Part shown: piece by piece, positions 9,038 to 62,040 of the stretch | Layout: each line of letters begins with the position of its first letter | Position numbering within the stretch: the stretch's first letter is position 1 | Source of the DNA: Pseudomonadales bacterium | Lineage (GTDB): Bacteria > Pseudomonadota > Gammaproteobacteria > Pseudomonadales > Azotimanducaceae | NCBI GenBank assembly: GCA_963665455.1 | Contig: OY762279.1 | Coordinates: 4,443,492-4,507,491 of the forward strand | DNA: 64,000 nucleotides | Reading direction: 5' to 3' | Notes under the pieces: model-generated | Databases searched by the model: none | What the model was told of the DNA's origin: nothing | What the model saw: the letters and a program-made list of their open reading frames with translations, nothing else | Position numbers and translations under genes: made by a program

Positions 9038-10203
9038 GCGCTCTTTCCTCCTATTGCGGTGAGCAGCCGACGCGCCAGCCAACGGTGCGTCGCGATGGCG
9101 GGTCCTTCCTGGAGCGGGCTCATCAGCCCGGGCTCGGCCCGGCTCGACCGGACCGCACGCGAGATGCCCCGGTCGAATACCGTCGAGTCCTGGAAGTTGA
9201 TCCTGTTCGGCCCCTCGGGGTCCGCGTATTGCTCCGGCGTGTACTGCTCGGCAGCGAACTCGGGAGGCGCCACGCTGAACATGGCGACCCGGGTCCGGTC
9301 GACCGAGATGGGCCAGTTCGCCTGGATGCTGAGCATGGCAGGTGTCGGCATCAGGAAATTGGCGGGGGGCGTAATGGTCATATCGAACGCCGGACGTCTC
9401 CGGCCGACCATGCCGATCTCGTCCTTGTCGGGCTCGAAGCCGTACCACCTGGTGTAGTACTCGAGGTCGAGTCCGAGCACCTGCCGGGACCAGTACTCGC
9501 CGCACGTCGTTGGCTCGGTCATGGAGAGTGGCTCGTACACCCGCATCGCCTCCGGGTGTACTCCCGGGCCGTGGTAGACGTCTCCATTCTCCATCGCCTG
9601 CTTCCAGTTCGTGTTCCACACGTCGACAAAGACGTTGTTGCACACGAGGTCTTCCCGGTCGCAGAACCGGAAGTAAGGCGCCAGGCCTTCGAGTCGTGGC
9701 GCAAGTGCCGCGGCATCGTCGTCGAAGTTCACGAAGACGACTCCGTTCCAGACCTCCACCCGGAACTCGGGGAGCGCGATCCGCGTCTTGTCGAAGCCGG
9801 CGTTGTCCGTCATGAAGGGCGCGCCGGCGAGCTTGCCGTCGAGCCCGTAGGTCCACAAGTGGTACGGGCACTGGAAGCGCTTCACGTTGCCGCGCTCCCC
9901 GTCCTGCGTGACCGGAACGGCGCGGTGCCGGCAGACCGATGAGAGGGCCCGGACCTTCCGGTCCTCGCCCCGCACGAACACGATCGGCTCGCCGAGGATT
10001 TCCCACGCGAAGTAGTCGCCGGGTTGCTTCAGCCACGCCGTGTGCCCGACCGCGATCCACTCCTTCCTCCAGACGTGCTCGAGTTCCAGCTCGTACACCT
10101 CGGGCGAGTAGTAGTGGAAGAGGTCCGGCGTGCGCGGTTGATCGTCCGGAGTCGCGAGATAGGCTTCGAGCGACTCGCGGATCTGCTCAAGCCCCGATCT
10201 CAT
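9034..10203 (-). CDS. Rieske [2Fe-2S] ring-hydroxylating oxygenase alpha subunit
   Basis: CRHRAVPV...CPYHLWTY (CxH..CxxH) Rieske motif, followed by a catalytic domain with NWKQAMENGDVYHGPGVHP. Confidence 0.85.
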   Translation of the reverse strand: MRSGLEQIRESLEAYLATPDDQPRTPDLFHYYSPEVYELELEHVWRKEWIAVGHTAWLKQPGDYFAWEILGEPIVFVRGEDRKVRALSSVCRHRAVPVTQDGERGNVKRFQCPYHLWTYGLDGKLAGAPFMTDNAGFDKTRIALPEFRVEVWNGVVFVNFDDDAAALAPRLEGLAPYFRFCDREDLVCNNVFVDVWNTNWKQAMENGDVYHGPGVHPEAMRVYEPLSMTEPTTCGEYWSRQVLGLDLEYYTRWYGFEPDKDEIGMVGRRRPAFDMTITPPANFLMPTPAMLSIQANWPISVDRTRVAMFSVAPPEFAAEQYTPEQYADPEGPNRINFQDSTVFDRGISRAVRSSRAEPGLMSPLQEGPAIATHRWLARRLLTAIGGKSA

Positions 10204-25879: not shown

Positions 25880-26344
25880 GGGTGCCCTCCCTCTCTCGAA
25901 CACCGCAGTTTACACTTGGTGTGCGCCCACAGCCTGCGCGCGGCGTCTGACGGTCGTTTGGCAGTTTGACACGTGGGCGGTTTTGGCCCACGCTTTGCCG
26001 ACACGGCAGCGTTTGGGAGGTGACGATGCCGACAGGTGGCAAGGCCAGCCGAACCGTCGGTGACCCGGTGGGCTCGTCCCGATCAGTCGGATTGGGACCC
26101 GCGACTCACCAGAAGCCCACGTCAATCGGGGCAAGGTCGCCCGCAGTGAGAACGGTCGCTGCGGGTTCAGCCGCGCCTGCGGCCCGCGATTGCCGCCAAG
26201 CGATCATGCAGAAGGCGGCCAACGCTCGATGGAGCGCAGTCGGCGACGGCGCATAGCCTTTTTCGATGCGCCGTAAGTGAGAAAAATTATCATTTTCATT
26301 TCGGTGCCGGTATCGGCACGGAAGATAGGCTTTTGGGGTGCGAA

Positions 26345-26647
26345 ATGAGCGACGAGTTGGCCTTGACTGACCCCGGTAAAATAGCCGCAGCGGCCGAAAA
26401 GATATACGACGAGCGGTATCGGCAAAAGTACGAGGGCAAGTTCCTCGGACAGTTTGTGGTCATCGATGTGCACGGTGGATCGGCCTACCAAGGAGAGTTT
26501 GCGGAGGAGGCGCTACAGAAGGCCAGAGAGAGTGCTCCTCATGGCGTCTTCCATCTGATCAGAATTGGCGCTCCGGGAGCGTTTAAGGTGAGCTACGTTG
26601 GCGAGCGAGAAACCAGCTGGAATTGGGTACTTCGACCAGCAGGGTAA
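26345..26647 (+). CDS. small protein, DUF5678-like (usual partner of AF_0612-type aspartic proteases)
   Basis: 100 aa. ...YEGKFLGQFVVIDVHGGSAYQGEFAEEALQKARESAPHGVFHLIRIG. Located in an AT-rich pocket. Family assignment is from memory of the pattern only. Confidence 0.4.
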   Translation: MSDELALTDPGKIAAAAEKIYDERYRQKYEGKFLGQFVVIDVHGGSAYQGEFAEEALQKARESAPHGVFHLIRIGAPGAFKVSYVGERETSWNWVLRPAG

Positions 26648-27020
26648 CGCATGCTTGAAGTTCCACCTCCGTGGCGTGCGACATCAGCCGCCCGGAGTGG
26701 AGTTCGAGGCGATCATAGACACCGGGTTCACGGGGTTCATCCAACTCCCTCTATCCCATGCTATGTCGTTGTCCCTTCCTCTCGAGGGCACGAACGCGGT
26801 GACTCTGGCGGATGGTTCCACCTTGGTGATGCTCACTGCTATGGCAGAGGCCACCCTAGTCGGTAGGTCAGAAGTTGGCGTCGTCCTGCTGTCCATGACG
26901 TCCGAGTCAGTACTCGTTGGCATGGATTTCCTGCGCAGGTTCGAGCGCGCCCTTCTCGTATCAAAGCACCTCGGCGTCGTGCTCATAGACGAACCCGATA
27001 CCCAACTGCCATCCGAGTAG
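26598..27020 (+). CDS. clan AA (retropepsin-like) aspartic protease
   Basis: EFEAIIDTGFTGFIQLP contains the D-T-G-F active-site loop. 140 aa. The only in-frame start upstream of conserved GYFDQQG is TTG 26598, giving a 50-nt out-of-frame overlap with the preceding ORF. Confidence 0.55.
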   Translation: MASEKPAGIGYFDQQGNACLKFHLRGVRHQPPGVEFEAIIDTGFTGFIQLPLSHAMSLSLPLEGTNAVTLADGSTLVMLTAMAEATLVGRSEVGVVLLSMTSESVLVGMDFLRRFERALLVSKHLGVVLIDEPDTQLPSE

Positions 27021-40636: not shown

Positions 40637-41647
40637 TCAGATGCCCAGCGTGCGGACGACGAAGCGCTGGAACGCGTGCATCGCCCCTTCGCTGTTGCCG
40701 TCAGGATTGTAGATGACCCGGCCCCGGTCGTAGCCGAGGGACGCGAGGCCCTTCTGCACCGACTCGCAGAGCGACTTGTCTTCCCCACCGATGTCGCCCC
40801 AGTCCGGCCGCCACTCCTCCGTGTCGAGTTCCTCGGGCAGCCGGTACACGTCCATCCGGCCCGCGCCCGTGCGGGCCGGGCCCTCCGGAGCGCCGAAGTT
40901 CATGGCGTGGATCGACTGCTTCTCGCGGGTGCCCGAGTTCCAGAACACGAAGCTCGGAAAGAGCGTCCAGAACATCTGCTGGTCCCCATCGGCGCGGCGC
41001 GTTCCGCTCATCTGCTTGGCCCAGAGGTCATGCCCCGTGTAGGTCAGGTCCTCGAAGGTCAGGTCCCGCAGGGAGCCGGGGTGCGCCGGAGGGCAGTGAT
41101 AGCACTCGAGGAAGTTGTCCATGACGATCTTCCAATTCGCCCGGATGGGGAAGTACTCATCGTACCTCTGCTGCAGCGTGCCGCCCCGGCCGCGCATGAT
41201 GATGACGCTCTGGTCGAGCAACTCCGCCGTGATGTAGCCGCCCGGCGTACGCAGATCGCCCACCCAGCCGGCGTACGTCCAGCTCTTGTAGAAGAGTTCG
41301 TGCTTTTCGCGTTCGTAGACGTCGGGGTCGAGATGGGCCCATGCGGGGAGAGAATGGGATCGAGCGGGATCGTCCGTGACCCCGGTGGGCGTAGCGGGCC
41401 TACACCGCACGAGCGTCTGTTCCCAAAGCTCCACCGACATCGGACTAGCAGGGTCCCCGCAGAGGCCAACCAGCTCCTCGATGCGCCCGATGTACTGCTC
41501 CTGAACCGTCTGGCCGACGTACTCGTTCGGCGCGACGAGTCTGATGGTCGACCCGCCCTGCCGAGCCTCAAGCGGACTGATCCACGTGCTGAATTGCTCC
41601 GGCGCAAGCTCGGCCCGCAACCGTGCGAGGCACTCTTCCCACACCAT
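40637..41647 (-). pseudogene. chimeric ORF: DnaA domain I-like N-terminus fused to a ring-hydroxylating oxygenase alpha subunit lacking its Rieske cluster region
   Basis: Residues from ATG 41647, MVWEECLARLRAELAPEQFSTWISPLEARQGGSTIRLVAPNEYVGQTVQEQYIGRIEEL, parallel E. coli DnaA [27 protein letters not shown]...LYAPNRFV. Next comes an RHO N-terminal stub, DPDVYEREKHELFYKSWTYAGWVGDLRTPGGYITAELLDQSVIIMRG. It jumps at about 41170 straight to catalytic-domain motifs ANWKIVMDNFLECYHCPPAHP, with no CxH..CxxH. Confidence 0.5.
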
Positions 41648-41788
41648 CCCCGTCCCCTTGGCCGCAGCAAATCTAGCTCGCCGAGAGTCTCCCAGCCTTA
41701 CCGGCATGTGTCCACAACGACTCAAGGGCGGGCCGATCACGCCCGAACGCGGTGGTGCTATCCGGTATCATCGACTCGCGGCGCGAAC

Positions 41789-41819
41789 ACGAGTCGTCAC
41801 CAAGAGCGAACGAGTCGTC
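41789..41819 (+). promoter_or_regulatory. two 10-bp direct repeats upstream of the PLD nuclease gene
   Basis: ACGAGTCGTC at 41789-41798 and 41810-41819 (21-bp spacing), plus inverted CGACTCG at 41772-41778. These sit 22 nt before ATG 41841. Confidence 0.2.
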
Positions 41820-41840
41820 GCACGACGAGGAGAGAAACGC

Positions 41841-42905
41841 ATGGCCGAACTGCTCGGGAGCGACTTCACCTCGAAGTTCAAGAAGCGTGTGGCGTCGGCC
41901 CGGGAAGTTTGGATTTGTTCGGCATGGATGACCGAAAGCCAGGCTCTGAACGCCTTGGTCAGCCGGAAGCGAGAATGTGCCGTGCGGGTCATCGTCGGCA
42001 TTCGCGGGAACGCAACATCGCCCGACAGCCTGTACAGGCTCGCGCAGGAGTTCGGGTGGGAGAGGGTCAGGATCGCCGATCCACCGGACCGTCTGTTCCA
42101 CGCCAAGCTCTTCCTGTTCCACTACCCCCGACGTCCGACCGTCGCGTGGATTGGCAGCGCCAACTTCACGGGCCACGGAATGGAGGTGAACAGAGAACTG
42201 ATGCTTGAGACCAGCCACAGCAGCGCCGTGACGGCTATGCAGAAGTGGTTCGACAAAGAGTGGGAGGATTGCTGCCCCGATACGGAGGCGGTGGCCGCAG
42301 CGTATCGGCAGCGGTGGACGCCGCCCAACGAATTCAACGGCGACTGGGGCGGCGAGCCAGCACCAGTCGGGCCCCGCCCCCGAACCGGGCCAGACAGGCG
42401 CAGCTTGGTCGACTTGCGGGAAAAGCCGGACAACGGCAAGTGCTACAAATTCAAGTACTTCGGAGAAGACCGCTGGGCGAAATCGCTCGCCGAGATTGCA
42501 CGCAACGTGCTCGTCGCCTTCGGGGACGCTGATCCAGATTTCCTGACAAGGTTCGCGACGAAGGATGACGAGGCGCGCACGGCTCTCCCGAGCGCCACGA
42601 GGCGTTACCTGAGCAAAAGACGCGGGGAGCTGGGCACACAACCGCCAAAGGGTGGGCTACCAAAGCCACATGGGCAATGGCGGATGGCGCAACGCTTGGA
42701 GGAGCACCTCTTTTTTCAGGGTAAATCGCGTCCCGGCATACTAAAGATGGCTTGCGAGGCCATGGACGTAACCTACGGAGAGGGCGACGCAGGGCCCATC
42801 GACTTTCAAAGTACCCAGAGAAGCAAGCCACCCGGATTCGCGGAAGGCGAGGTCATCCTAGTGAAGATCGGAACCAGATCGGAGCGTCACCGGCTAGACT
42901 CTTAG
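41841..42905 (+). CDS. phospholipase D/Nuc-family (single HKD) nuclease with an unassigned C-terminal domain
   Basis: ATG 41841 inside track ORF 41544..42905. FHAKLFLFHYPRRPTVAWIGSANFTGHG is the HxK(x)4D...GSxN motif (42099-42164). The last ~190 aa are unrecognised. Confidence 0.7.
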   Translation: MAELLGSDFTSKFKKRVASAREVWICSAWMTESQALNALVSRKRECAVRVIVGIRGNATSPDSLYRLAQEFGWERVRIADPPDRLFHAKLFLFHYPRRPTVAWIGSANFTGHGMEVNRELMLETSHSSAVTAMQKWFDKEWEDCCPDTEAVAAAYRQRWTPPNEFNGDWGGEPAPVGPRPRTGPDRRSLVDLREKPDNGKCYKFKYFGEDRWAKSLAEIARNVLVAFGDADPDFLTRFATKDDEARTALPSATRRYLSKRRGELGTQPPKGGLPKPHGQWRMAQRLEEHLFFQGKSRPGILKMACEAMDVTYGEGDAGPIDFQSTQRSKPPGFAEGEVILVKIGTRSERHRLDS

Positions 42906-43025
42906 GCGCGGTCCGTTCCTTGCTGCCTAGTGCTAGTGGACGTCCTTGACGCGGCTCTCATTGATGCACAGTCCCACCGAGTCCAGTCCTGACGACGAGC
43001 CCTTTGGACAGTAAGGCTGATCGGG

Positions 43026-43739
43026 TCACGCGTCTCCATCGGGTACCTGTTGATGATCGCGACAGAACTGCCAAAGATAGGCGTCCACCTGCTGCCGGGT
43101 GAGTCCGTGTTCCCGCGCAAGAAAGGTCACCATTTGGTCCGGGGTCGCCGAACACGCATTGGCGCATTGGATGATCCACGTGTCCGCCTTTTCGGTGTCC
43201 TCGATACCGAGAATCAGGGCCAAGTGTTGGCCCGTCGCGGGCCCTATCCAAGGCAACTCCACCAGGGCCGAGCGGCCTCGCTCCACCACACGCTCCCTGA
43301 AGGCGGGCCACCCTTCCGCGTTGATCATTCGGCATCCCTTGAGGAAAGCGTCGGCCTTGGCCTGATTGCGGATCGGTAGCGTCTGGGCGTCCACCCCGTC
43401 CATCGCCACGATCTTGTCCAGATCCAGCTCGTGGAATGCCGCTACGAGGGCAGGCAAGTGCTTGGCCACGACCGCAGTACGGAAACCCGACTCAAAGACC
43501 ACGCAAAGGTAGTCCTCAAGGAAAGTCCTCAGATCCACATCCTCGAACTTGCGAGGCTTGAAGATGTCGTCGCCCACATGCCTGCGAGCCACAGCCAGCA
43601 TCCGGCTTGCCTTGTCCTTGTCCACACGAATCGCTCCCGTGACCGTCGCCGAGTATGGCCCAAAACGCAAACGACCGCTCCCGCCAAGTGAATCCCGCGC
43701 CCGATGGCATCTGCGTGCGGGGGCGTGGGACGGAATCAC
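43026..43739 (-). CDS. helix-hairpin-helix protein, Tag/HhH DNA-glycosylase-like (tentative)
   Basis: LPWIGPATGQHLALILGI HhH motif. The preceding helices (LRTFLEDYLCVVFESGFRTAVVAKHLPALVAAFHELDLDKIVAM...IRNQAKADAFLKG) parallel E. coli Tag LFEMICLEGQQAGLSW...FDPVKVAAM...IIRHRGKIQAII. Start is either GTG 43739 (GTGA overlap with the zinc-ribbon gene) or ATG 43601. Confidence 0.4.
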   Translation of the reverse strand: MIPSHAPARRCHRARDSLGGSGRLRFGPYSATVTGAIRVDKDKASRMLAVARRHVGDDIFKPRKFEDVDLRTFLEDYLCVVFESGFRTAVVAKHLPALVAAFHELDLDKIVAMDGVDAQTLPIRNQAKADAFLKGCRMINAEGWPAFRERVVERGRSALVELPWIGPATGQHLALILGIEDTEKADTWIIQCANACSATPDQMVTFLAREHGLTRQQVDAYLWQFCRDHQQVPDGDA

Positions 43740-44026
43740 GTCTTGTCCGGCAGCCCCTTCGAGATATCCCCCCGGCGATTGATCAGCCGGTCCGGATCCG
43801 CGTCCCGGGTGTTGTGCATCGCCCGGTCCACCATCTTGTCGTACTTGGGATCGAGGCGTTCGAGCTTCGAGAGGTTCGACAGGTGCACCGAGGGGCGGGA
43901 GACGATGCGCCGGGTGCTTTCGCTACCGCAGCGTTCGCACGGATGCGGCGCGTTGGCGCGCGACACCGGGGCGAGCACGGACGTCACCGCCCGGCAGTTA
44001 CTGCAGCGGTACTCGTAGATGGGCAT
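43736..44026 (-). CDS. FmdB-family zinc-ribbon protein
   Basis: MPIYEYRCSNCRAVTSV...HPCERCGS: CxxC..CxxC with the canonical MP.YEY.C start. 96 aa inside track ORF 43736..44419. Confidence 0.7.
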   Translation of the reverse strand: MPIYEYRCSNCRAVTSVLAPVSRANAPHPCERCGSESTRRIVSRPSVHLSNLSKLERLDPKYDKMVDRAMHNTRDADPDRLINRRGDISKGLPDKT

Positions 44027-44046
44027 CCGCCGCCCGCCCGGCGCCG

Positions 44047-44433
44047 TCAGGCGGCGAGTTCCGCTCCCTTGTCGATCAGGGCCTGAATCGAGAGGTGATA
44101 GCGCTCGAACTTCATCTTGTCGAGGACGTTGCGGGAGCTCACGATCTCGCGGTCGGTGTCCAGGGAGAGCAGCGACGGTCCGGTCCCCTTCTTGCGGCGC
44201 TTGAGGTAGTTCGTCCAGTCGCGCGCGGGCATGTCGATGACCAGTTCGACGTCGCGCAGGTCGTCCTCGCCGATCGCCTCGATCATGCCAACCTCGAATG
44301 CCTCCAGGATGACCCTGCGAATCGTCTTGCCGGCCTTGAAGCCGATCACCACGTCCGCGCTGCCGAGTTTCCGGTAGGCGGGATCGACGTTGAGCGCGTC
44401 TCTCGCGCCTTCGAGCCAATCGAGCTGGGGCAT
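44047..44433 (-). CDS. SCP2-like (sterol carrier protein 2 fold) small protein
   Basis: About 128 aa. ...NVDPAYRKLGSADVVIGFKAGK...VELVIDMPARDWTNYL... resembles the SCP2 pattern and the upstream paralog-like gene. Alternative TTG start at 44442. Confidence 0.5.
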   Translation of the reverse strand: MPQLDWLEGARDALNVDPAYRKLGSADVVIGFKAGKTIRRVILEAFEVGMIEAIGEDDLRDVELVIDMPARDWTNYLKRRKKGTGPSLLSLDTDREIVSSRNVLDKMKFERYHLSIQALIDKGAELAA

Positions 44434-44447
44434 GTGTCTCAAGTCCT

Positions 44448-44903
44448 CTAGGCGAACGCCGTCTTCACGCGCGCGGACGCGTCGAAGTAGAACTGCAGCG
44501 TCTGGTTGTAGCGAAAGAAGAGGTCTTCCCGGTATTGGTCCCCGTGCCTCGACGTCGAGAGGCCGTCGTCCCGGTCGAGGTCGAGGCTGTTCAGGGTGTG
44601 ATTCTCCGTGGCGTGGCCATGGTGCTGGATGTCCTCAAGCATCTCCCGCCAGTCCGCCCTCGGCATGTGCATGTAGAAGTCGACCTCGTCGAGCGCGGCC
44701 TCGTCCGCCGCCACGCCCCCCTTGCACTCGGCACCCTCGAAGGTCAGCACGAACACGTCCTCGAGCACGCTCTCGTCCTCGCCCGTGACGACCAGGCCGG
44801 CCGTGCAGTTGCAGTGTCCGCCACCGGCGCCCTGGTAGCGGTCATCGCTGTTGTAGACGGCCGCGACCGCGCCGAACCATGCTTCCGAGGGAAACCTCGC
44901 CAT
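44448..44903 (-). CDS. SCP2-like small protein
   Basis: 151 aa starting MARFPSEAWFGAVAAVYNSDD...CTAGLVVTGED...FVLTFEGAEC...VDFYMHMPRADWREML. The ATG shares one base with the upstream stop (TGATG). Confidence 0.55.
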   Translation of the reverse strand: MARFPSEAWFGAVAAVYNSDDRYQGAGGGHCNCTAGLVVTGEDESVLEDVFVLTFEGAECKGGVAADEAALDEVDFYMHMPRADWREMLEDIQHHGHATENHTLNSLDLDRDDGLSTSRHGDQYREDLFFRYNQTLQFYFDASARVKTAFA

Positions 44904-45934
44904 CACGCGGCTTCCGGCAGGAAGCGCCGCATCTCCTCCGGTATGCGGTCCGCCGCGCGGGGCACGCGCAGCCAATCCCAAACGGCCTCGTAGCGCGCCA
45001 TGAAGTCCCGCATCATGGCCTCCCACGTGGCCATTCCGGTGGTCGCCGCCTTCGCCACGCCGCCCCCGAAGATGACGGCCAACGCCTCGCGGAGGACCGG
45101 GTCGCGGAGTTCCCGCGCAAAGATCCGGTCGCCGATGAAGAGGAGCGTGGCCAACACCTGCGCTTGGGCGTCGACATGCGCGATGGAGTACTTCAGGTGG
45201 TCCAGGGCGTACGCCATGTGCCGCGCGCGGTCCTGAATGACGTGTGCGTAGATGAAGCGCTCCGCGTCGTTGTGCGCGAAGCGTTCGAGGTAGCGCAGGA
45301 TGGTCATCGCGTACGTACCGCGCAGCAGGAACAAGTACGTGACCGCCTCCGTCCAGCCGCCCCGGCTCTCGAGGATCATGCGGTTCACCTCTCCGGGTGC
45401 CTCGAGGCCCAATCCTCCGCCGTTGTAGAGCGCGCGCTTGCGGAACACCTCGTAGTGGCGTCCGGCATCGAACGTGGCGGTCGCGAGGAACTGCTTCACC
45501 TCGTGATAGCCGTAGGCCATCTGATGCTGCCAGGAGGAGATCGTCTCGATGTCCACGTTCGCGTACTGCGAGAGTTCGGTGCACACCTGGCACACCGCGC
45601 GTTCCACGTCGTCGGGAAGAGGCTCGATGGTGTCCCAGGGAACGTCCGTCGCCGGCGCCCAGCGCCGCTGGATTGCCTCCTCGTAGAGGTCCGCCGCCGA
45701 GTCCGCCCAAACCGCCGCCTTCTCCCGAATCGCATATCCGACGGGCGGCATGCCCCGGCGAGGGATCGCACCCCGCGGATTGCGGGTCTGGTCGTTCCAC
45801 TCCGTGGGAATCTCGCCGTAGATGCCAACGTTCAAGCTACCGAGGGTCAGGCCCTTCTTGCCGGGCTTCACCCGCACGCCCCACTGGCGGGACTGGTTCA
45901 TCCAGTCGAACTTGGGGTCCGGCACGGGGGTCAT
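44903..45934 (-). CDS. ferritin-like diiron-protein paralog lacking carboxylate ligands (putative non-catalytic subunit)
   Basis: Paralogous to 46125..47195 (QTxxPRGA, LYEEAIQRRW, TDVPWDTIEPLPDD). The motif positions read DAGRH (45455-45469) and DRARH (45217-45231). Start is ATG 45934 by alignment with the paralog; GTG 46054 is possible. Confidence 0.6.
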   Translation of the reverse strand: MTPVPDPKFDWMNQSRQWGVRVKPGKKGLTLGSLNVGIYGEIPTEWNDQTRNPRGAIPRRGMPPVGYAIREKAAVWADSAADLYEEAIQRRWAPATDVPWDTIEPLPDDVERAVCQVCTELSQYANVDIETISSWQHQMAYGYHEVKQFLATATFDAGRHYEVFRKRALYNGGGLGLEAPGEVNRMILESRGGWTEAVTYLFLLRGTYAMTILRYLERFAHNDAERFIYAHVIQDRARHMAYALDHLKYSIAHVDAQAQVLATLLFIGDRIFARELRDPVLREALAVIFGGGVAKAATTGMATWEAMMRDFMARYEAVWDWLRVPRAADRIPEEMRRFLPEAA

Positions 45935-46081
45935 GAGGTTCGCGCCGTCCGCGGAAACCGTCTCGATCCGTCTCGGCGATGACTTCGCCTGTGCGCGTTT
46001 CTTCGTATGCGAGGGGTTCCCCCTCGCGCTCCCCGGCTGACGGCTCTTGGCCACGTTGTGATACCCGTCCGGTCAGGTTAC

Positions 46082-46108
46082 GGAAAACGCCCGCCGGGAA
46101 GACGGGCG
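46082..46108 (-). terminator. intercistronic GC stem-loop followed by TTTTCC (attenuator or terminator-like)
   Basis: Minus strand reads CGCCCG-TCTTCCCGG-CGGGCG-TTTTCC, 17 nt after the stop of the upstream diiron gene. Confidence 0.3.
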
Positions 46109-46124
46109 CGTGGTGTGTGTTCGC

Positions 46125-47195
46125 CTAGGCGGCTATGTCGGCCAGGATTTCCGGCACCTGCGAGCGGCCGTTGTCGAAACGGTCGCCGAAGCCCGCGCTC
46201 CTGACGCGCTTGATGTACTCGGAAAGCTGCCGGCGGCGGATGGCGATGAGCTTGTTGCGCCCCTCGTCGAAGTGCTGCTTGCCGCCACCGAGCAGGATGG
46301 CCATGGACTCCGAAGTCTGCGGGAACTGTCCCGCCGGGTTCTGCGAACCCGCGAGAATCCCACGCTCCGCCTCGTCGAGGTAGCAGTGGATCTCTTCGTG
46401 GCGTTCCGGCGCCGTCTCGGCCATGTAGCGCATGTGCATGACGCCGAACGCGACGTGGCGCGCCTCGTCCTGGGCGCACAGGCGGTAGATGGCCTTCTCC
46501 GCGTCGTTGTATGCCATCAGTTCGCCCATGCGGAAGATGGTGAGCACGGCGCCCTCGCCGGAGATGTGCAGCCGGGACGACATCTCGGTGAAGTCCCGCG
46601 AGAGGTCGATGCTGCCCACGACGCCCGAGGTGCCACCGGTCGCCTTCATGAGGCCACCGCCGTTGGCGAGCGCGCGCTTGCGGAAGACGTCCATGTGGCG
46701 CGACTCGTCCATCACCTGGCAGAGGAGCACGTTGCGGGCCTCGAAGAAGTCCGGCGTCGTCTGGGCGATCCAGCGCGCCGGCACGTCCCCGGCCACGAAC
46801 TCGACCTCCGTGAGGAAGGTGTCCATCGTGCACTGCGCCTGCTCGATGTCGTCCGGCAGCGGTTCGATGGTGTCCCAGGGGATGTCCGTCGCCGAACTCC
46901 ACTGGCGCTGCAGGGCCTCCTCGTAGAGGAACGAGGCGTTGTCGAGCCAGATCTCGCTCTTCGTGCGCACGGCGTAGTTGCCGATGCGATAGGACCCAGG
47001 CCGCTCCGCCGCGCCCCGCGGGCGGCCCGTCTGGTTGTCGCTCTGCTCCGGCGGATCACCGTAGTCCCCGACCTGGATGTCGGCCAGCGTCAGACCGTAC
47101 TTGCTCTGTTCGGCACGCGTATCCCACTGGCCTTGCTGGTCCATCCAGCCCAAGTCCAGTTCTTGATCGGTTTCGAGCTGAACCGCTTCGCTCAT
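46125..47195 (-). CDS. ferritin-like diiron-carboxylate protein (putative catalytic oxygenase subunit), family unassigned
   Basis: ATG 47195 after GGGGAG. Two complete motifs: E-x33-DESRH (DESRH = 46695-46709) and E-x29-DEARH (46455-46469). Confidence 0.7.
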   Translation of the reverse strand: MSEAVQLETDQELDLGWMDQQGQWDTRAEQSKYGLTLADIQVGDYGDPPEQSDNQTGRPRGAAERPGSYRIGNYAVRTKSEIWLDNASFLYEEALQRQWSSATDIPWDTIEPLPDDIEQAQCTMDTFLTEVEFVAGDVPARWIAQTTPDFFEARNVLLCQVMDESRHMDVFRKRALANGGGLMKATGGTSGVVGSIDLSRDFTEMSSRLHISGEGAVLTIFRMGELMAYNDAEKAIYRLCAQDEARHVAFGVMHMRYMAETAPERHEEIHCYLDEAERGILAGSQNPAGQFPQTSESMAILLGGGKQHFDEGRNKLIAIRRRQLSEYIKRVRSAGFGDRFDNGRSQVPEILADIAA

Positions 47196-47322
47196 GAATC
47201 GCTCCCCAAGGGTGTTCAACGTGACATTTGCCCCAGGCGGTCGCCCCACCGGGCACCGACGGTCGAGGCCCACCAGCCAAGGCAGGTACTATACCCGCCG
47301 GTTCGGGATTCTCAAATAGGCG

Positions 47323-47733
47323 ATGAGCTTCGAGTTGCACCCCCGCCTGACCACCGACTGCGAACGGCTGTGTGAGCTGGGCCTCTCGACGGCCCTGCTC
47401 GCCCGCGACCGGAGGTTTCACTGGGTCATCCTGGTGCCGCGCATCGCCGGCCTACGCGACCTGCACGACGTTCCCGCCGCGCACCGGGCAGCCCTGTTCG
47501 ACGAAATCGAGCAGGTCTCCGCAGCCCTCAAGCGCATCGTGGAGGCCGACAAGATCAACGTGGCCGCGCTCGGCAACCAAGTCCCCCAGTTGCACATTCA
47601 CGTCATCGCGCGCCGCACGGACGATCCGGCCTGGCCGGACCCGGTCTGGAGCGCCCCCGCGGCCGACGCGCCCCTCGCGGGTGCCGAGTTGGCCGCGCGC
47701 GCAACACGCATCAAGGAGGAAATCTCTGCATGA
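47323..47733 (+). CDS. HIT (histidine triad) family protein
   Basis: QLHIHVIAR histidine triad (HxHxH); 136 aa. Confidence 0.8.
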
Positions 47734-59083: not shown

Positions 59084-59500
59084 TCAGCTATGGCTCTCGA
59101 ACGGGCTCAAGTGCGGAACCCCCATCCTCTCGAAGTGCTTCCGGTCTCGCGTGACGACGACCAAATCTCGCTCAAGCGCTGTCGCCGCGATCAAACCATC
59201 GACGGCAGGAACGGGGTCGGGCGTTCCCAGCGTCCCCCACCGCTCCGCGATGGCCTTGTCGACACCGACGATCCGATCACGAAACTCGATGGATGTCCGT
59301 GCGAGCCAGCTAGCCAACACGCGCGCCGTGGCCGGATCCCTTCGCCGCACCCGTTCCACACCCCGTCGCAGTTCACCAATGGTGAGAACGCTCAGGAACA
59401 ACTCGCCAGGTCTCCGTCGTCGCAACCAAGCAACCACGTTGGGGTTCGCTCGCCGTTTGCGCAGTTCCGACACGACGTTCGTGTCGAGGAGATAGCTCAC
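59084..59500 (-). CDS. vapC: PIN-domain toxin VapC/FitB-like
   Basis: SYLLDTNVVSELRK...IAATALERDLVVVTRDRKHF. GTGA overlap with the upstream antitoxin. Confidence 0.85.
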   Translation of the reverse strand: MSYLLDTNVVSELRKRRANPNVVAWLRRRRPGELFLSVLTIGELRRGVERVRRRDPATARVLASWLARTSIEFRDRIVGVDKAIAERWGTLGTPDPVPAVDGLIAATALERDLVVVTRDRKHFERMGVPHLSPFESHS

Positions 59501-61205: not shown

Positions 61206-61265
61206 TAGCGCCCCGCAACCGTCGCCTACGGCTCCGCTCGCGGCCCAGTCCCTCCGGCCTACGCG
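61206..61265. repeat. second copy of the 60-nt REP-like repeat
   Basis: TAGCGCCCCGCAACCGTCGCCTACGGCTCCGCTCGCGGCCCAGTCCCTCCGGCCTACGCG matches 58 of 60 nt of the reverse complement of 51401-51460. Confidence 0.5.
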
Positions 61266-61558
61266 CCCGCGGCGCTGACCACAAGAAGCGTCGTCACGGC
61301 GTCGAAGCCTCGGACACGCTCCGAATAGACGGCCGTGCGCGCCAGTTGCCCAAGTTCCCGGTCGAGCTCCTGTTTGAGCCTCTTCCGCTCTCTGCCACGC
61401 CGAACAAGCGTGTCGTAGGGCTCGGCCAACGCGTACGCCGGAACCCGTAGCTCGATATCACCCCGCTCGGCAAGCTTCAATATCTCGTCGCAGCTATCCG
61501 CCCATCGCTGCAACAAGGCGAGTTCCAGAACGAAGTTCGACTCGACGTAGACCTTCAC
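61259..61558 (-). CDS. hypothetical protein, N-terminal half of a PIN-like fold, apparently truncated
   Basis: KVYVESNFVLELALL...ELRVPAYALAEPYDTL resembles the first two PIN acidic blocks, and the C-terminal blocks are absent. The last codons and the stop lie inside the 60-nt repeat. GTGA overlap with the upstream gene. Confidence 0.35.
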   Translation of the reverse strand: MKVYVESNFVLELALLQRWADSCDEILKLAERGDIELRVPAYALAEPYDTLVRRGRERKRLKQELDRELGQLARTAVYSERVRGFDAVTTLLVVSAAGA

Positions 61559-62040
61559 AGTGCCACTTCATGCTCGACGTGTCCATCGACCACGGCAGCA
61601 CGAAAGCCCGATTCATCTAACCATTCCTGGCCTGCGGCAGCCTGCTCGGGACGACGCCATGTCAGGTCGCTAAACCAACCGGAGACCAGCATCTCGAAGG
61701 CCGGCCCCGTCACGTTGGCAGGGTCGATTCCCGCCCTCTCGAAATAGGGCGCGAACGTCGGCGCACAGTCGGCCTCGTACGTCGGCGGCAGCTCCACGGG
61801 CTCATTGCCCACGTCCTTCCAAACGTAGAGGCGATCCGGAGTGACCATCAAGAAGAAGTCCCATCGGCCCACCAACCCATGCGCCAACATGTTCCGCCGG
61901 GTACGCGCTGCCCACTCGCCGGAGGTATCCCTCAGATTCTTGACTTCGACGACGGCCACCAGTTGACCCTTCCCGTCGTACAGGCCGAGATCCACTCGAA
62001 GCGGCATTTCGTCGATCACCAATCGTTGTCGGTCGGTCAT
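61555..62040 (-). CDS. hypothetical PD-(D/E)XK-like (HsdR N-terminal-domain-like) protein
   Basis: RVDLGLYDGKGQLVAVVEVKN gives a D...E-x-K arrangement; 161 aa. Confidence 0.4.
   Translation of the reverse strand: MTDRQRLVIDEMPLRVDLGLYDGKGQLVAVVEVKNLRDTSGEWAARTRRNMLAHGLVGRWDFFLMVTPDRLYVWKDVGNEPVELPPTYEADCAPTFAPYFERAGIDPANVTGPAFEMLVSGWFSDLTWRRPEQAAAGQEWLDESGFRAAVVDGHVEHEVAL

Follow-up and report, generated by a model that had tools for sequence, protein, structure and literature searches.

Within a stretch of 64,000 nucleotides from a bacterium of the Pseudomonadales (assembly GCA_963665455.1, contig OY762279.1, positions 4,443,492 to 4,507,491; hereafter the window, numbered from its first letter), a small islet of atypical composition carries two convergent genes: one for a predicted endonuclease of the phospholipase D (PLD) family (41841–42905, +) and one for a glycosylase-type protein of the helix-hairpin-helix (HhH) superfamily (43026–43625, −). 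An earlier note on this DNA had taken the two genes for a candidate defence pair. The reading favoured here, with a fair degree of confidence, is that the islet was acquired and holds two independent single-gene modules, not a system, probably aimed at modified phage DNA. What it builds on are the folds and motifs of the proteins, the composition of the DNA, the missing linkage and the mobile settings; a defence role, substrates and dimerisation are what we infer for the modules. Both genes do look horizontally acquired and each comes from a family now known to supply anti-phage functions, a part of the earlier claim that stands; taken singly, each could credibly be a member, or a variant, of a kind of anti-phage enzyme that has been described recently.

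Outside the window, neither gene keeps the other's company. PLD homologues were inspected in 23 loci, which amount to 21 distinct places, and HhH homologues in six loci, or five distinct places. With the HhH protein as query, tblastn gives no match within 8–10 kb of the PLD gene at any of the 21; queried with the full PLD protein and with the C-terminal domain separately, it gives no family homologue at any of the five. The marginal PLD signal in one HhH locus (L027) comes from an unrelated PLDc_2-SNF2 helicase, ∼1.7 kb from the HhH gene. A single contig of 4.88 Mb has both families, at 2.88–2.90 Mb and at 3.95–3.97 Mb, ∼1.07 Mb apart. No neighbour of either gene recurs between contexts, and in the window the convergent orientation means that the two genes cannot share a transcript. 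By the earlier note's own test of co-occurrence, the evidence speaks against a two-gene defence pair: the genes are neighbours.

The two genes are AT-richer than their surroundings, as the earlier note had observed. The region 41,741–43,739 has 61.7% GC against 66.5% for the window, ∼2 standard deviations below the mean of 2-kb windows, and the patch that carries both genes extends over ∼2.3 kb (∼41,380–43,735, 62% GC). The G+C content of third codon positions (GC3) is 0.752 in the PLD open reading frame (ORF) and 0.750 in the HhH ORF, compared with 0.87–0.90 in the flanking transporter, zinc-ribbon and diiron genes, and both ORFs look acquired because of this mismatch. To the left the low-GC3 tract runs further than first noted, to ∼41,380, into a DnaA_N-like coding segment (41380–41740, −) that continues in the same frame into what is left of a GbcA-like oxygenase gene. 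The ORF that results (40637–41740, −) is a chimera, with Pfam matches to DnaA_N (residues 33–91, E 1.1e-15) and Ring_hydroxyl_A; its oxygenase part matches NCBIfam GbcA in two pieces, the Rieske region (∼100 aa) having been deleted, and GC3 is 0.65–0.85 in the DnaA_N part against 0.88–0.95 in the oxygenase part. This chimera is probably a pseudogene at the left edge of the acquired DNA. On the right, the low-GC3 tract is bounded by a spacer of 110 bp (43626–43735) between the stop of a zinc-ribbon gene and the start of the HhH gene. At the ends of the islet, no tRNA, integrase, Rfam element or meaningful direct or inverted flanking repeats were found. That the two genes lie side by side is most simply put down to defence cargo gathering at a single permissive site, where insertion destroyed the oxygenase gene.

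The PLD gene named in the earlier note is real and intact. It encodes a protein of 354 aa with a catalytic N-terminal PLD domain (residues 1–160, 41841–42320, +) and a family-specific C-terminal domain, and is preceded by a plausible Shine-Dalgarno sequence. The protein has zero membrane segments and a single HKD-type active-site motif at 42099–42164, precisely the position given in the earlier note (H87-x-K89 ... G105-S-A-N108; translation HAKLFLFHYPRRPTVAWIGSAN). Its Pfam matches are to PLDc_2 (6.9e-14, 52.3 bits against a cut-off of 27) and RE_NgoFVII (3.7e-9, 36.5 bits against a cut-off of 23.8). Across 28 relatives (alignment A1), the residues H87, K89, N108 and E119 and the signature VAWIGSANFT are invariant; the canonical Asp of HxK(x)4D is a His in the window protein, at a position that is not conserved in the family. 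Full-length homologues are 40–52% identical. The AlphaFold model has a pLDDT of mostly 84–95 over residues 11–160 (with dips near 85, 105 and 115), and Foldseek matches it to the nuclease domain of SauUSI (3.6e-9) and to NucT (2.4e-7), then to Zucchini, Nuc (1byr) and the R protein of NgoAVII (4rct). Judged by sequence and model, the protein belongs with the nucleases among PLD enzymes and not with those that act on phospholipids: the Pfam matches above gathering scores and the nuclease matches in Foldseek uphold the earlier assignment to Nuc- or BfiI-type nucleases, and no match to an enzyme of phospholipid metabolism appeared. In PADLOC and NCBIfam the protein gives weak generic PLD matches (ZacB, DrmC, DpdK), far under the cut-offs.

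The C-terminal domain (residues 186–354, 42396–42902, +), presumed to be a reader of DNA or of modified bases, is another matter. The earlier note could not assign the ∼190 residues at this end of the protein, and the domain (∼170 aa) still has zero matches in Pfam or the Protein Data Bank, whether searched as a sequence or as a profile (A4). The PLD family is rare (35 clusters among 5.8 billion), and its one conserved catalytic domain bears at least three different C-terminal domains, which define subgroups 1–3. That of subgroup 1, to which the window protein belongs, is represented by about a dozen sequences, and a profile search with it finds PLD-family fragments only. The domain of subgroup 2 is weakly related to it (hhalign probability 54%, E 1.3e-4). 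Proteins of subgroup 3 are longer (388–427 aa), with an HhH motif in a C-terminal domain that remotely matches an Ogg/Cap11-like profile (probability 50–75%, E 2.6e-5 to 1.7e-4), compared with an hhalign probability of 0.3% for the C-terminal domain of the window protein. The subgroup-3 domain also occurs in a Rhizobium plasmid gene that adjoins genes for a UvrD helicase and McrC. Members of this subgroup are found in loci L006, L008–L011, L015 (near position 10,000) and L029 (4956–6176) and as P0030–P0033; their C-terminal consensus reads GxGxGxATRLLxxARPDRFVSLN...MRAALLDCFxY, and their immediate neighbours include HNH, Mrr_cat, DUF4238, UvrD-helicase and McrC genes. Several PLD homologues are truncated.

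The five closest PLD relatives for which context is available are solo genes that have no neighbour in common; around them lie transposases, DUF1643, lambda Ea8.5-like and NYN genes, or ordinary metabolic genes. For relatives further removed, the gene just upstream is of the HNH, Mrr_cat, DUF4238 or transposase kind. Methyltransferase genes are scarce across the PLD loci: none is adjacent to any of the five closest relatives, one is adjacent in L001, where a subgroup-2 PLD gene lies directly downstream of an Eco57I-type N6 methyltransferase gene, and one lies ∼3 kb upstream in L019. In the window, the methyltransferase motifs [DNS]PP[YFW] and PC[QK] are absent from plausible ORFs except for two unrelated matches, and a tblastn search with the L001 enzyme of Eco57I type yields no match. 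In L004 the neighbouring DUF1643 gene was considered as a second glycosylase-like partner, on the assumption that DUF1643 is UDG-like; it occurs in one locus only, no supporting literature was found, and it is not used here.

For the HhH gene, GTG 43625 is almost certainly the start codon, since ∼50 homologues (∼195 aa) begin at an MDK...ML position equivalent to this codon and a GGGAG, a plausible Shine-Dalgarno sequence, lies 8 nt upstream of it. The earlier note had used GTG 43739, a start that overlaps the zinc-ribbon stop (GTGA); with the corrected start there is no such overlap and the 110-bp spacer takes its place. The protein of 199 aa (43026–43625, −) belongs to the HhH-GPD superfamily and resembles Ogg2 and Cap11 (‘OGG’). 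Its HhH motif LVELPWIGPATGQHLALILG (residues 121–140, 43206–43265, −) aligns with IKGIGY(K/Q)EASHFLRNVG of MjOgg. Further on are K146-A-D148 (43182–43190, −), with D148 aligned to the catalytic Asp of Ogg2 (IIDRH), and a D181-x3-W185 motif (DAYLW, 43071–43085, −) aligned to DLYIW of Ogg2. Across the wide family K146 and D148 hardly vary, and the position of the lyase Lys of Ogg2 is Ala130 in the window protein. If active, the protein should be a monofunctional glycosylase, because the lyase Lys is replaced and the Asp kept.

The AlphaFold model of the HhH protein (pLDDT 89.6) is all-helical, and Foldseek ranks Tag first (2ofk and 4ai5, TM 0.54–0.58), then NTHL1, MutY and AlkA, so that the HhH motif and the Tag-like helical pattern described in the earlier note are both borne out. 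Foldseek probability is 1.0 for Tag, MutY and NTHL1, with E-values of only ∼1e-2; the protein is therefore distant from every solved family. It has zero Pfam or NCBIfam matches, Adenine_glyco being absent at E up to 0.1 and Ogg-HhH likewise. The PADLOC model OGG (PDLC00910), which represents Cap11, does match (E 1.3e-21 and 7.3e-22, 75–76 bits, model positions 34–207 of 215). Exhaustive profile searching extends the family to 685 clusters at 50% identity; the OGG model matches all 73 relatives sampled, and Adenine_glyco weakly matches only 15 of these 73 distant relatives. The profile of the wide family aligns over its full length with Ogg2 (MjOgg 3knt at 2.5e-6, and TmOgg 3n0u) and with Tag at 3e-5. 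A housekeeping Tag ortholog, which by the earlier note would have counted against its idea, does not fit the missing Adenine_glyco match or the patchy and mobile contexts. Homologues 60–69% identical are spread patchily over Rhodobacteraceae, Bryobacterales, Acidobacteriia and others, and such identity across phyla indicates horizontal transfer of the gene. Four cysteines (C98, C154, C158 and C188) are invariant or >90% conserved in the tight subfamily (alignment A2), not in the wide family (A5); together they may bind a metal in a site peculiar to this subfamily, with a loose resemblance to the zinc site in Tag or the Fe-S cluster in EndoIII.

The five places in which HhH homologues were seen are diverse, and DNA similarity between them ends at the ends of the coding sequence. 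One homologue is alone among metabolic genes and another lies beside a transposase. In L026 (8001–8834) the gene sits between pdxJ and recO, interrupting a housekeeping cluster that is conserved in other respects. In L021 (10001–10920) it is disrupted, with residues 1–172 and 169–195 encoded ∼300 bp apart, and has in its vicinity a Type ISP restriction-modification gene, a gene pair for an AAA and a WYL protein, and IS66-family genes. L027 is an integrase-bounded island in which the homologue is accompanied by Abi_alpha, a KAP NTPase, the PLD-SNF2 helicase, Fic and an MmeI-type methyltransferase. Annotation of the five places lists no CD-NTase, Cap9 or Cap10 genes. The L026 homologue, P0070, P0073 and P0077 (four clusters) have an extra C-terminal segment of ∼90 aa; the idea that such segments are antitoxin RHH domains was dropped, as Pfam gave no support. 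A scan of the JGI metagenomes with the HhH alignment found nothing, nor did IMG/VR scans with both families or tblastn against phage records; plasmids gave no HhH match and two distant PLD matches only, and in BFVD nothing resembled the HhH model in structure. On these essentially empty searches, an origin from a phage or plasmid was dropped, and so was an anti-defence role.

By analogy with its better-known relatives of the Nuc/BfiI/SauUSI type, the PLD protein would be an endonuclease that needs no metal ions and that probably pairs with a second copy of itself, the two HxK...N...E motifs of the homodimer making up a single active site. Dimers with a single active site and metal-free cleavage are established for Nuc and BfiI; in this class of single-HKD nucleases, cleavage passes through a phospho-His intermediate. 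The spacing of H, K, N and E in the window protein resembles that of the Nuc and BfiI active sites, given what we take to be the BfiI residue numbers. The PLD domain would cut and the C-terminal domain would select the substrate, following the modular scheme of END-type modification-dependent restriction enzymes; the nuclease domain forms a tight clade with those of relatives whose C-terminal domains are interchangeable, which fits this scheme. Since no linked methyltransferase protects the host, the enzyme would most likely spare host DNA by requiring, as has been shown for END and SauUSI, a modification or structure of foreign DNA, which the novel C-terminal domain would read.

The END nucleases (END-PaCF1 and its homologues) are single-gene, methylase-less enzymes encoded in defence islands; their BfiI/SauUSI-like PLD domain is joined to an inactivated EndoIII/Ogg sensor, and PLD domains are found with other sensors as well (bioRxiv 10.1101/2025.03.31.646159). 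A hallmark of the group is that it restricts only those phages whose DNA is hypermodified. Compared by description, the window protein is like them in being encoded by a single gene with neither a linked methyltransferase nor a conserved partner, in its BfiI/NgoAVII/SauUSI-like PLD domain with HxK, in its mobile or defence-island contexts and in its exchangeable C-terminal domain. The HhH C-terminal domain is a feature of its subgroup-3 relatives and not of the window protein; from their sequences, these relatives are probably END-type nucleases. The C-terminal domain in the window is unlike the END sensor: it is not HhH/EndoIII-like and matches no known reader domain. With BfiI, NgoFVII and R.NgoAVII, the protein has in common the RE_NgoFVII N-terminal PLD domain, the two-domain layout and the Foldseek match to NgoAVII R. 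It differs from these enzymes in having no adjacent methyltransferase and no ATPase partner like the NgoAVII N protein, and its C-terminal domain did not appear as a B3-like pseudobarrel in the searches made, the model there being of low confidence.

The HhH protein would flip out and remove a non-canonical base, most likely, by analogy with the Dag enzymes, one of the 7-deazaguanine type, and base removal would leave abasic sites that cripple the phage genome. Bases of this type are the leading candidate because the protein matches the Cap11 model, the Cap11 system uses 7-deazaguanine chemistry and the HhH-type Dag enzymes target such bases, each of these three links being indirect. Dag1–Dag16 are small single-gene defences of the HhH superfamily that lie in AT-richer mobile loci, cluster structurally near Tag, aGOG, MjOgg and SsOgg, and excise 7-deazaguanine-type phage bases; Dag1 has an essential D184/W188 and a Lys-Asp pair and appears bifunctional (bioRxiv 10.1101/2025.10.29.685425). 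The window protein, compared by description, is similarly small, the product of one gene whose locus is AT-richer and of the mobile or defence-associated kind, and escapes the Pfam glycosylase models. Its D181-x3-W185 has the spacing of D184/W188, which suggests an equivalence made by motif spacing and not by alignment; a difference is that Dag1 has the Lys-Asp pair, where in the window protein an Ala takes the place of the Ogg2 lyase Lys. The Dag proteins also came from Vibrio integrons, which sets them apart from it.

Cap11 (‘OGG’) accompanies type IV CBASS as an accessory protein, and 7-deazaguanine chemistry is the basis of that system (bioRxiv 10.1101/2025.04.06.647259). The OGG model is the sole curated family model that matches the window HhH protein (174 of 215 positions), and the sizes agree (∼200–215 aa). 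The setting is different, with no nearby CD-NTase, Cap9 (QueC-like) or Cap10 (TGT-like) and with the PLD gene, the zinc-ribbon gene and the diiron operon as neighbours; so is the size of the family, 685 HhH clusters against the ∼16 type IV CBASS operons with Cap11 that are implied by 49 operons of which about a third have it. Ogg2 (MjOgg 3knt) has in common with the protein the HhH-GPD fold, the full-length profile alignment, the catalytic Asp and the C-terminal D-x3-W, and not the lyase Lys or the Ogg-HhH Pfam match. Tag gives the best structural superposition, and the window protein departs from it in lacking an Adenine_glyco match, in being mobile and not housekeeping, and in its atypical GC3. 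The four subfamily-specific conserved cysteines are a further difference from Ogg2 and Tag.

Several rival explanations have to be weighed. The two genes could form a functional pair that works as a split END nuclease, in which the glycosylase removes modified bases and the PLD protein recognises and cuts abasic or modified DNA. They are adjacent, convergent and alike in their atypical GC3; the same PLD domain is fused in relatives to an HhH domain remotely like this glycosylase family; END nucleases join a PLD and an EndoIII/Ogg-like domain in one chain; an HhH homologue lies close to a PLD-helicase gene in L027; and a monofunctional glycosylase would gain from a partner nuclease. However, the genes co-occur at none of the 21 PLD or five HhH places and are ∼1.07 Mb apart in the one genome with both, the window PLD protein already has a C-terminal domain of its own, convergent genes are not co-transcribed, and the END sensor domain is catalytically dead whereas the HhH protein keeps its Asp. 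Taken together, these points make a pair very unlikely. The version in which a competent HhH glycosylase makes abasic sites and the C-terminal reader of the PLD protein directs cleavage there, as a split counterpart of END, has a slender chance. A different rival keeps the genes apart and takes the PLD protein for a classical Type II/IIS nuclease like BfiI or NgoFVII, whose methyltransferase is elsewhere or lost, with the HhH gene unrelated. It can draw on the RE_NgoFVII match, on the Eco57I-type N6 methyltransferase directly upstream of the subgroup-2 relative and the one ∼3 kb away in L019, and on the weak relation between the C-terminal domains of subgroups 1 and 2. It is unlikely, though worth keeping in mind, given that a methyltransferase gene next to the PLD gene is missing from the window and from all five contexts of subgroup 1, that the C-terminal domain has no match to a B3-like or pseudobarrel DNA-binding domain, and that an unlinked methyltransferase would be an unstable arrangement for a mobile solo nuclease gene.

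For the HhH gene, a role other than a defence DNA glycosylase would be that of a repair enzyme, of the last gene of the diiron/zinc-ribbon operon, or of a Cap11-like hydrolase of 7-deazaguanine on proteins or nucleotides. The gene is co-directional with the diiron operon and no terminator was found in the spacer at 43626–43735, so that read-through from the operon is possible; Cap11 has been proposed to reverse a protein-linked deazaguanine modification; and some homologues sit in housekeeping neighbourhoods, such as that between pdxJ and recO. Yet the 110-bp gap and a GC3 of 0.75 against 0.88–0.90 separate the gene from the operon, diiron or zinc-ribbon genes are absent from all five other places with an HhH homologue, CD-NTase, QueC and TGT are not among the immediate neighbours, the patchy cross-phylum spread at 60–69% identity indicates horizontal transfer, and there is no Adenine_glyco Pfam match. 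A non-defence role is decidedly unlikely, and the suggestion of the earlier note that the diiron operon ends with this gene is not sustained. Decay of both genes, left behind by former insertions and no longer functional, would agree with the deletion and fusion in the neighbouring oxygenase pseudogene, with the disrupted HhH homologue in L021 and with the truncated PLD homologues; both window ORFs are, however, full length relative to their homologues, with all invariant catalytic residues present and plausible Shine-Dalgarno sequences, and decay seems highly improbable.

The preferred reading of two independent modules aimed at modified DNA has its own weak points. Likeness to END, Dag and Cap11 is drawn from published descriptions and the PADLOC model, not from direct alignment, so that membership of these groups is put forward as probable kinship. 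The window protein reaches 76 bits on the OGG model, compared with a best E of 2.6e-85 among its relatives. CBASS defence works without Cap11, whose target may be a base linked to a protein and not DNA (bioRxiv 10.1101/2025.04.06.647259). No reader fold can be recognised in the C-terminal domain of the PLD protein, where AlphaFold gives a low-confidence model, so a likeness at the level of the fold may escape detection. A methyltransferase could lie beyond the 64-kb window. Finally, several homologues of both genes are found among ordinary metabolic genes, with no defence neighbours.

The divergent intergenic or promoter region to the left of the PLD gene (41741–41840) contains two copies of the 10-bp direct repeat ACGAGTCGTC, at 41789–41798 and 41810–41819 (start-to-start spacing 21), and an inverted core CGACTCG at 41772–41778. 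The repeats are present as the earlier note had described them, and their standing beyond chance is what did not hold: the window has ∼14 comparable exact 10-mer pairs within 30 bp, and with up to one mismatch the ACGAGTCGTC motif occurs 10 times where 10.2 are expected. Because similar close pairs are common and the motif is not enriched, the repeats alone are evidence of nothing; they may serve as an operator and are statistically indistinguishable from chance. No sigma-70-like promoter was found in 41741–41840.

To the right of the islet, the operon at 43736–47273 (−) encodes two paralogous ferritin-like diiron proteins (38% identical), with weak matches to AurF and R2-like oxidases, two proteins of ∼130–150 aa with no Pfam match, and the FmdB-type zinc-ribbon protein; a HIT-family gene diverges from it at 47323. 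Elsewhere, the low-GC region at 25.3–28 kb has two overlapping ORFs (26333–27020, +), one of 104 aa with no family match and one of 140 aa with sub-threshold matches to retropepsin-like aspartyl proteases, a similar gene being present in L001 close to its PLD gene. At 59084–59500 (−) a PIN-domain gene with a low GC3 (0.72) likely encodes a VapC-type toxin, and adjacent small low-GC3 ORFs lie at 61259–62040. The relatives of both islet genes come mostly from uncultured metagenome-assembled genomes of Latescibacterota, Dadabacteria, Binatia, Acidobacteriota, Bryobacterales, Thiotrichales and Rhodobacteraceae, an assemblage presumably typical of marine sponge microbiomes.

Two cautions follow for the reading of such loci: adjacency and a common composition in a small islet are insufficient for calling a system, and the PADLOC OGG model will flag many genes that are unrelated to CBASS. 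The most useful leads are the unassigned C-terminal domain of the PLD protein and the large free-standing Cap11-like family. If the reading given here is true, the C-terminal module, known from about a dozen sequences among 5.8 billion clusters, would be a candidate for a new reader of modified DNA, and solo HhH relatives that excise 7-deazaguanine-type bases from DNA would tie Cap11 to the Dag enzymes and hint at the role of Cap11.

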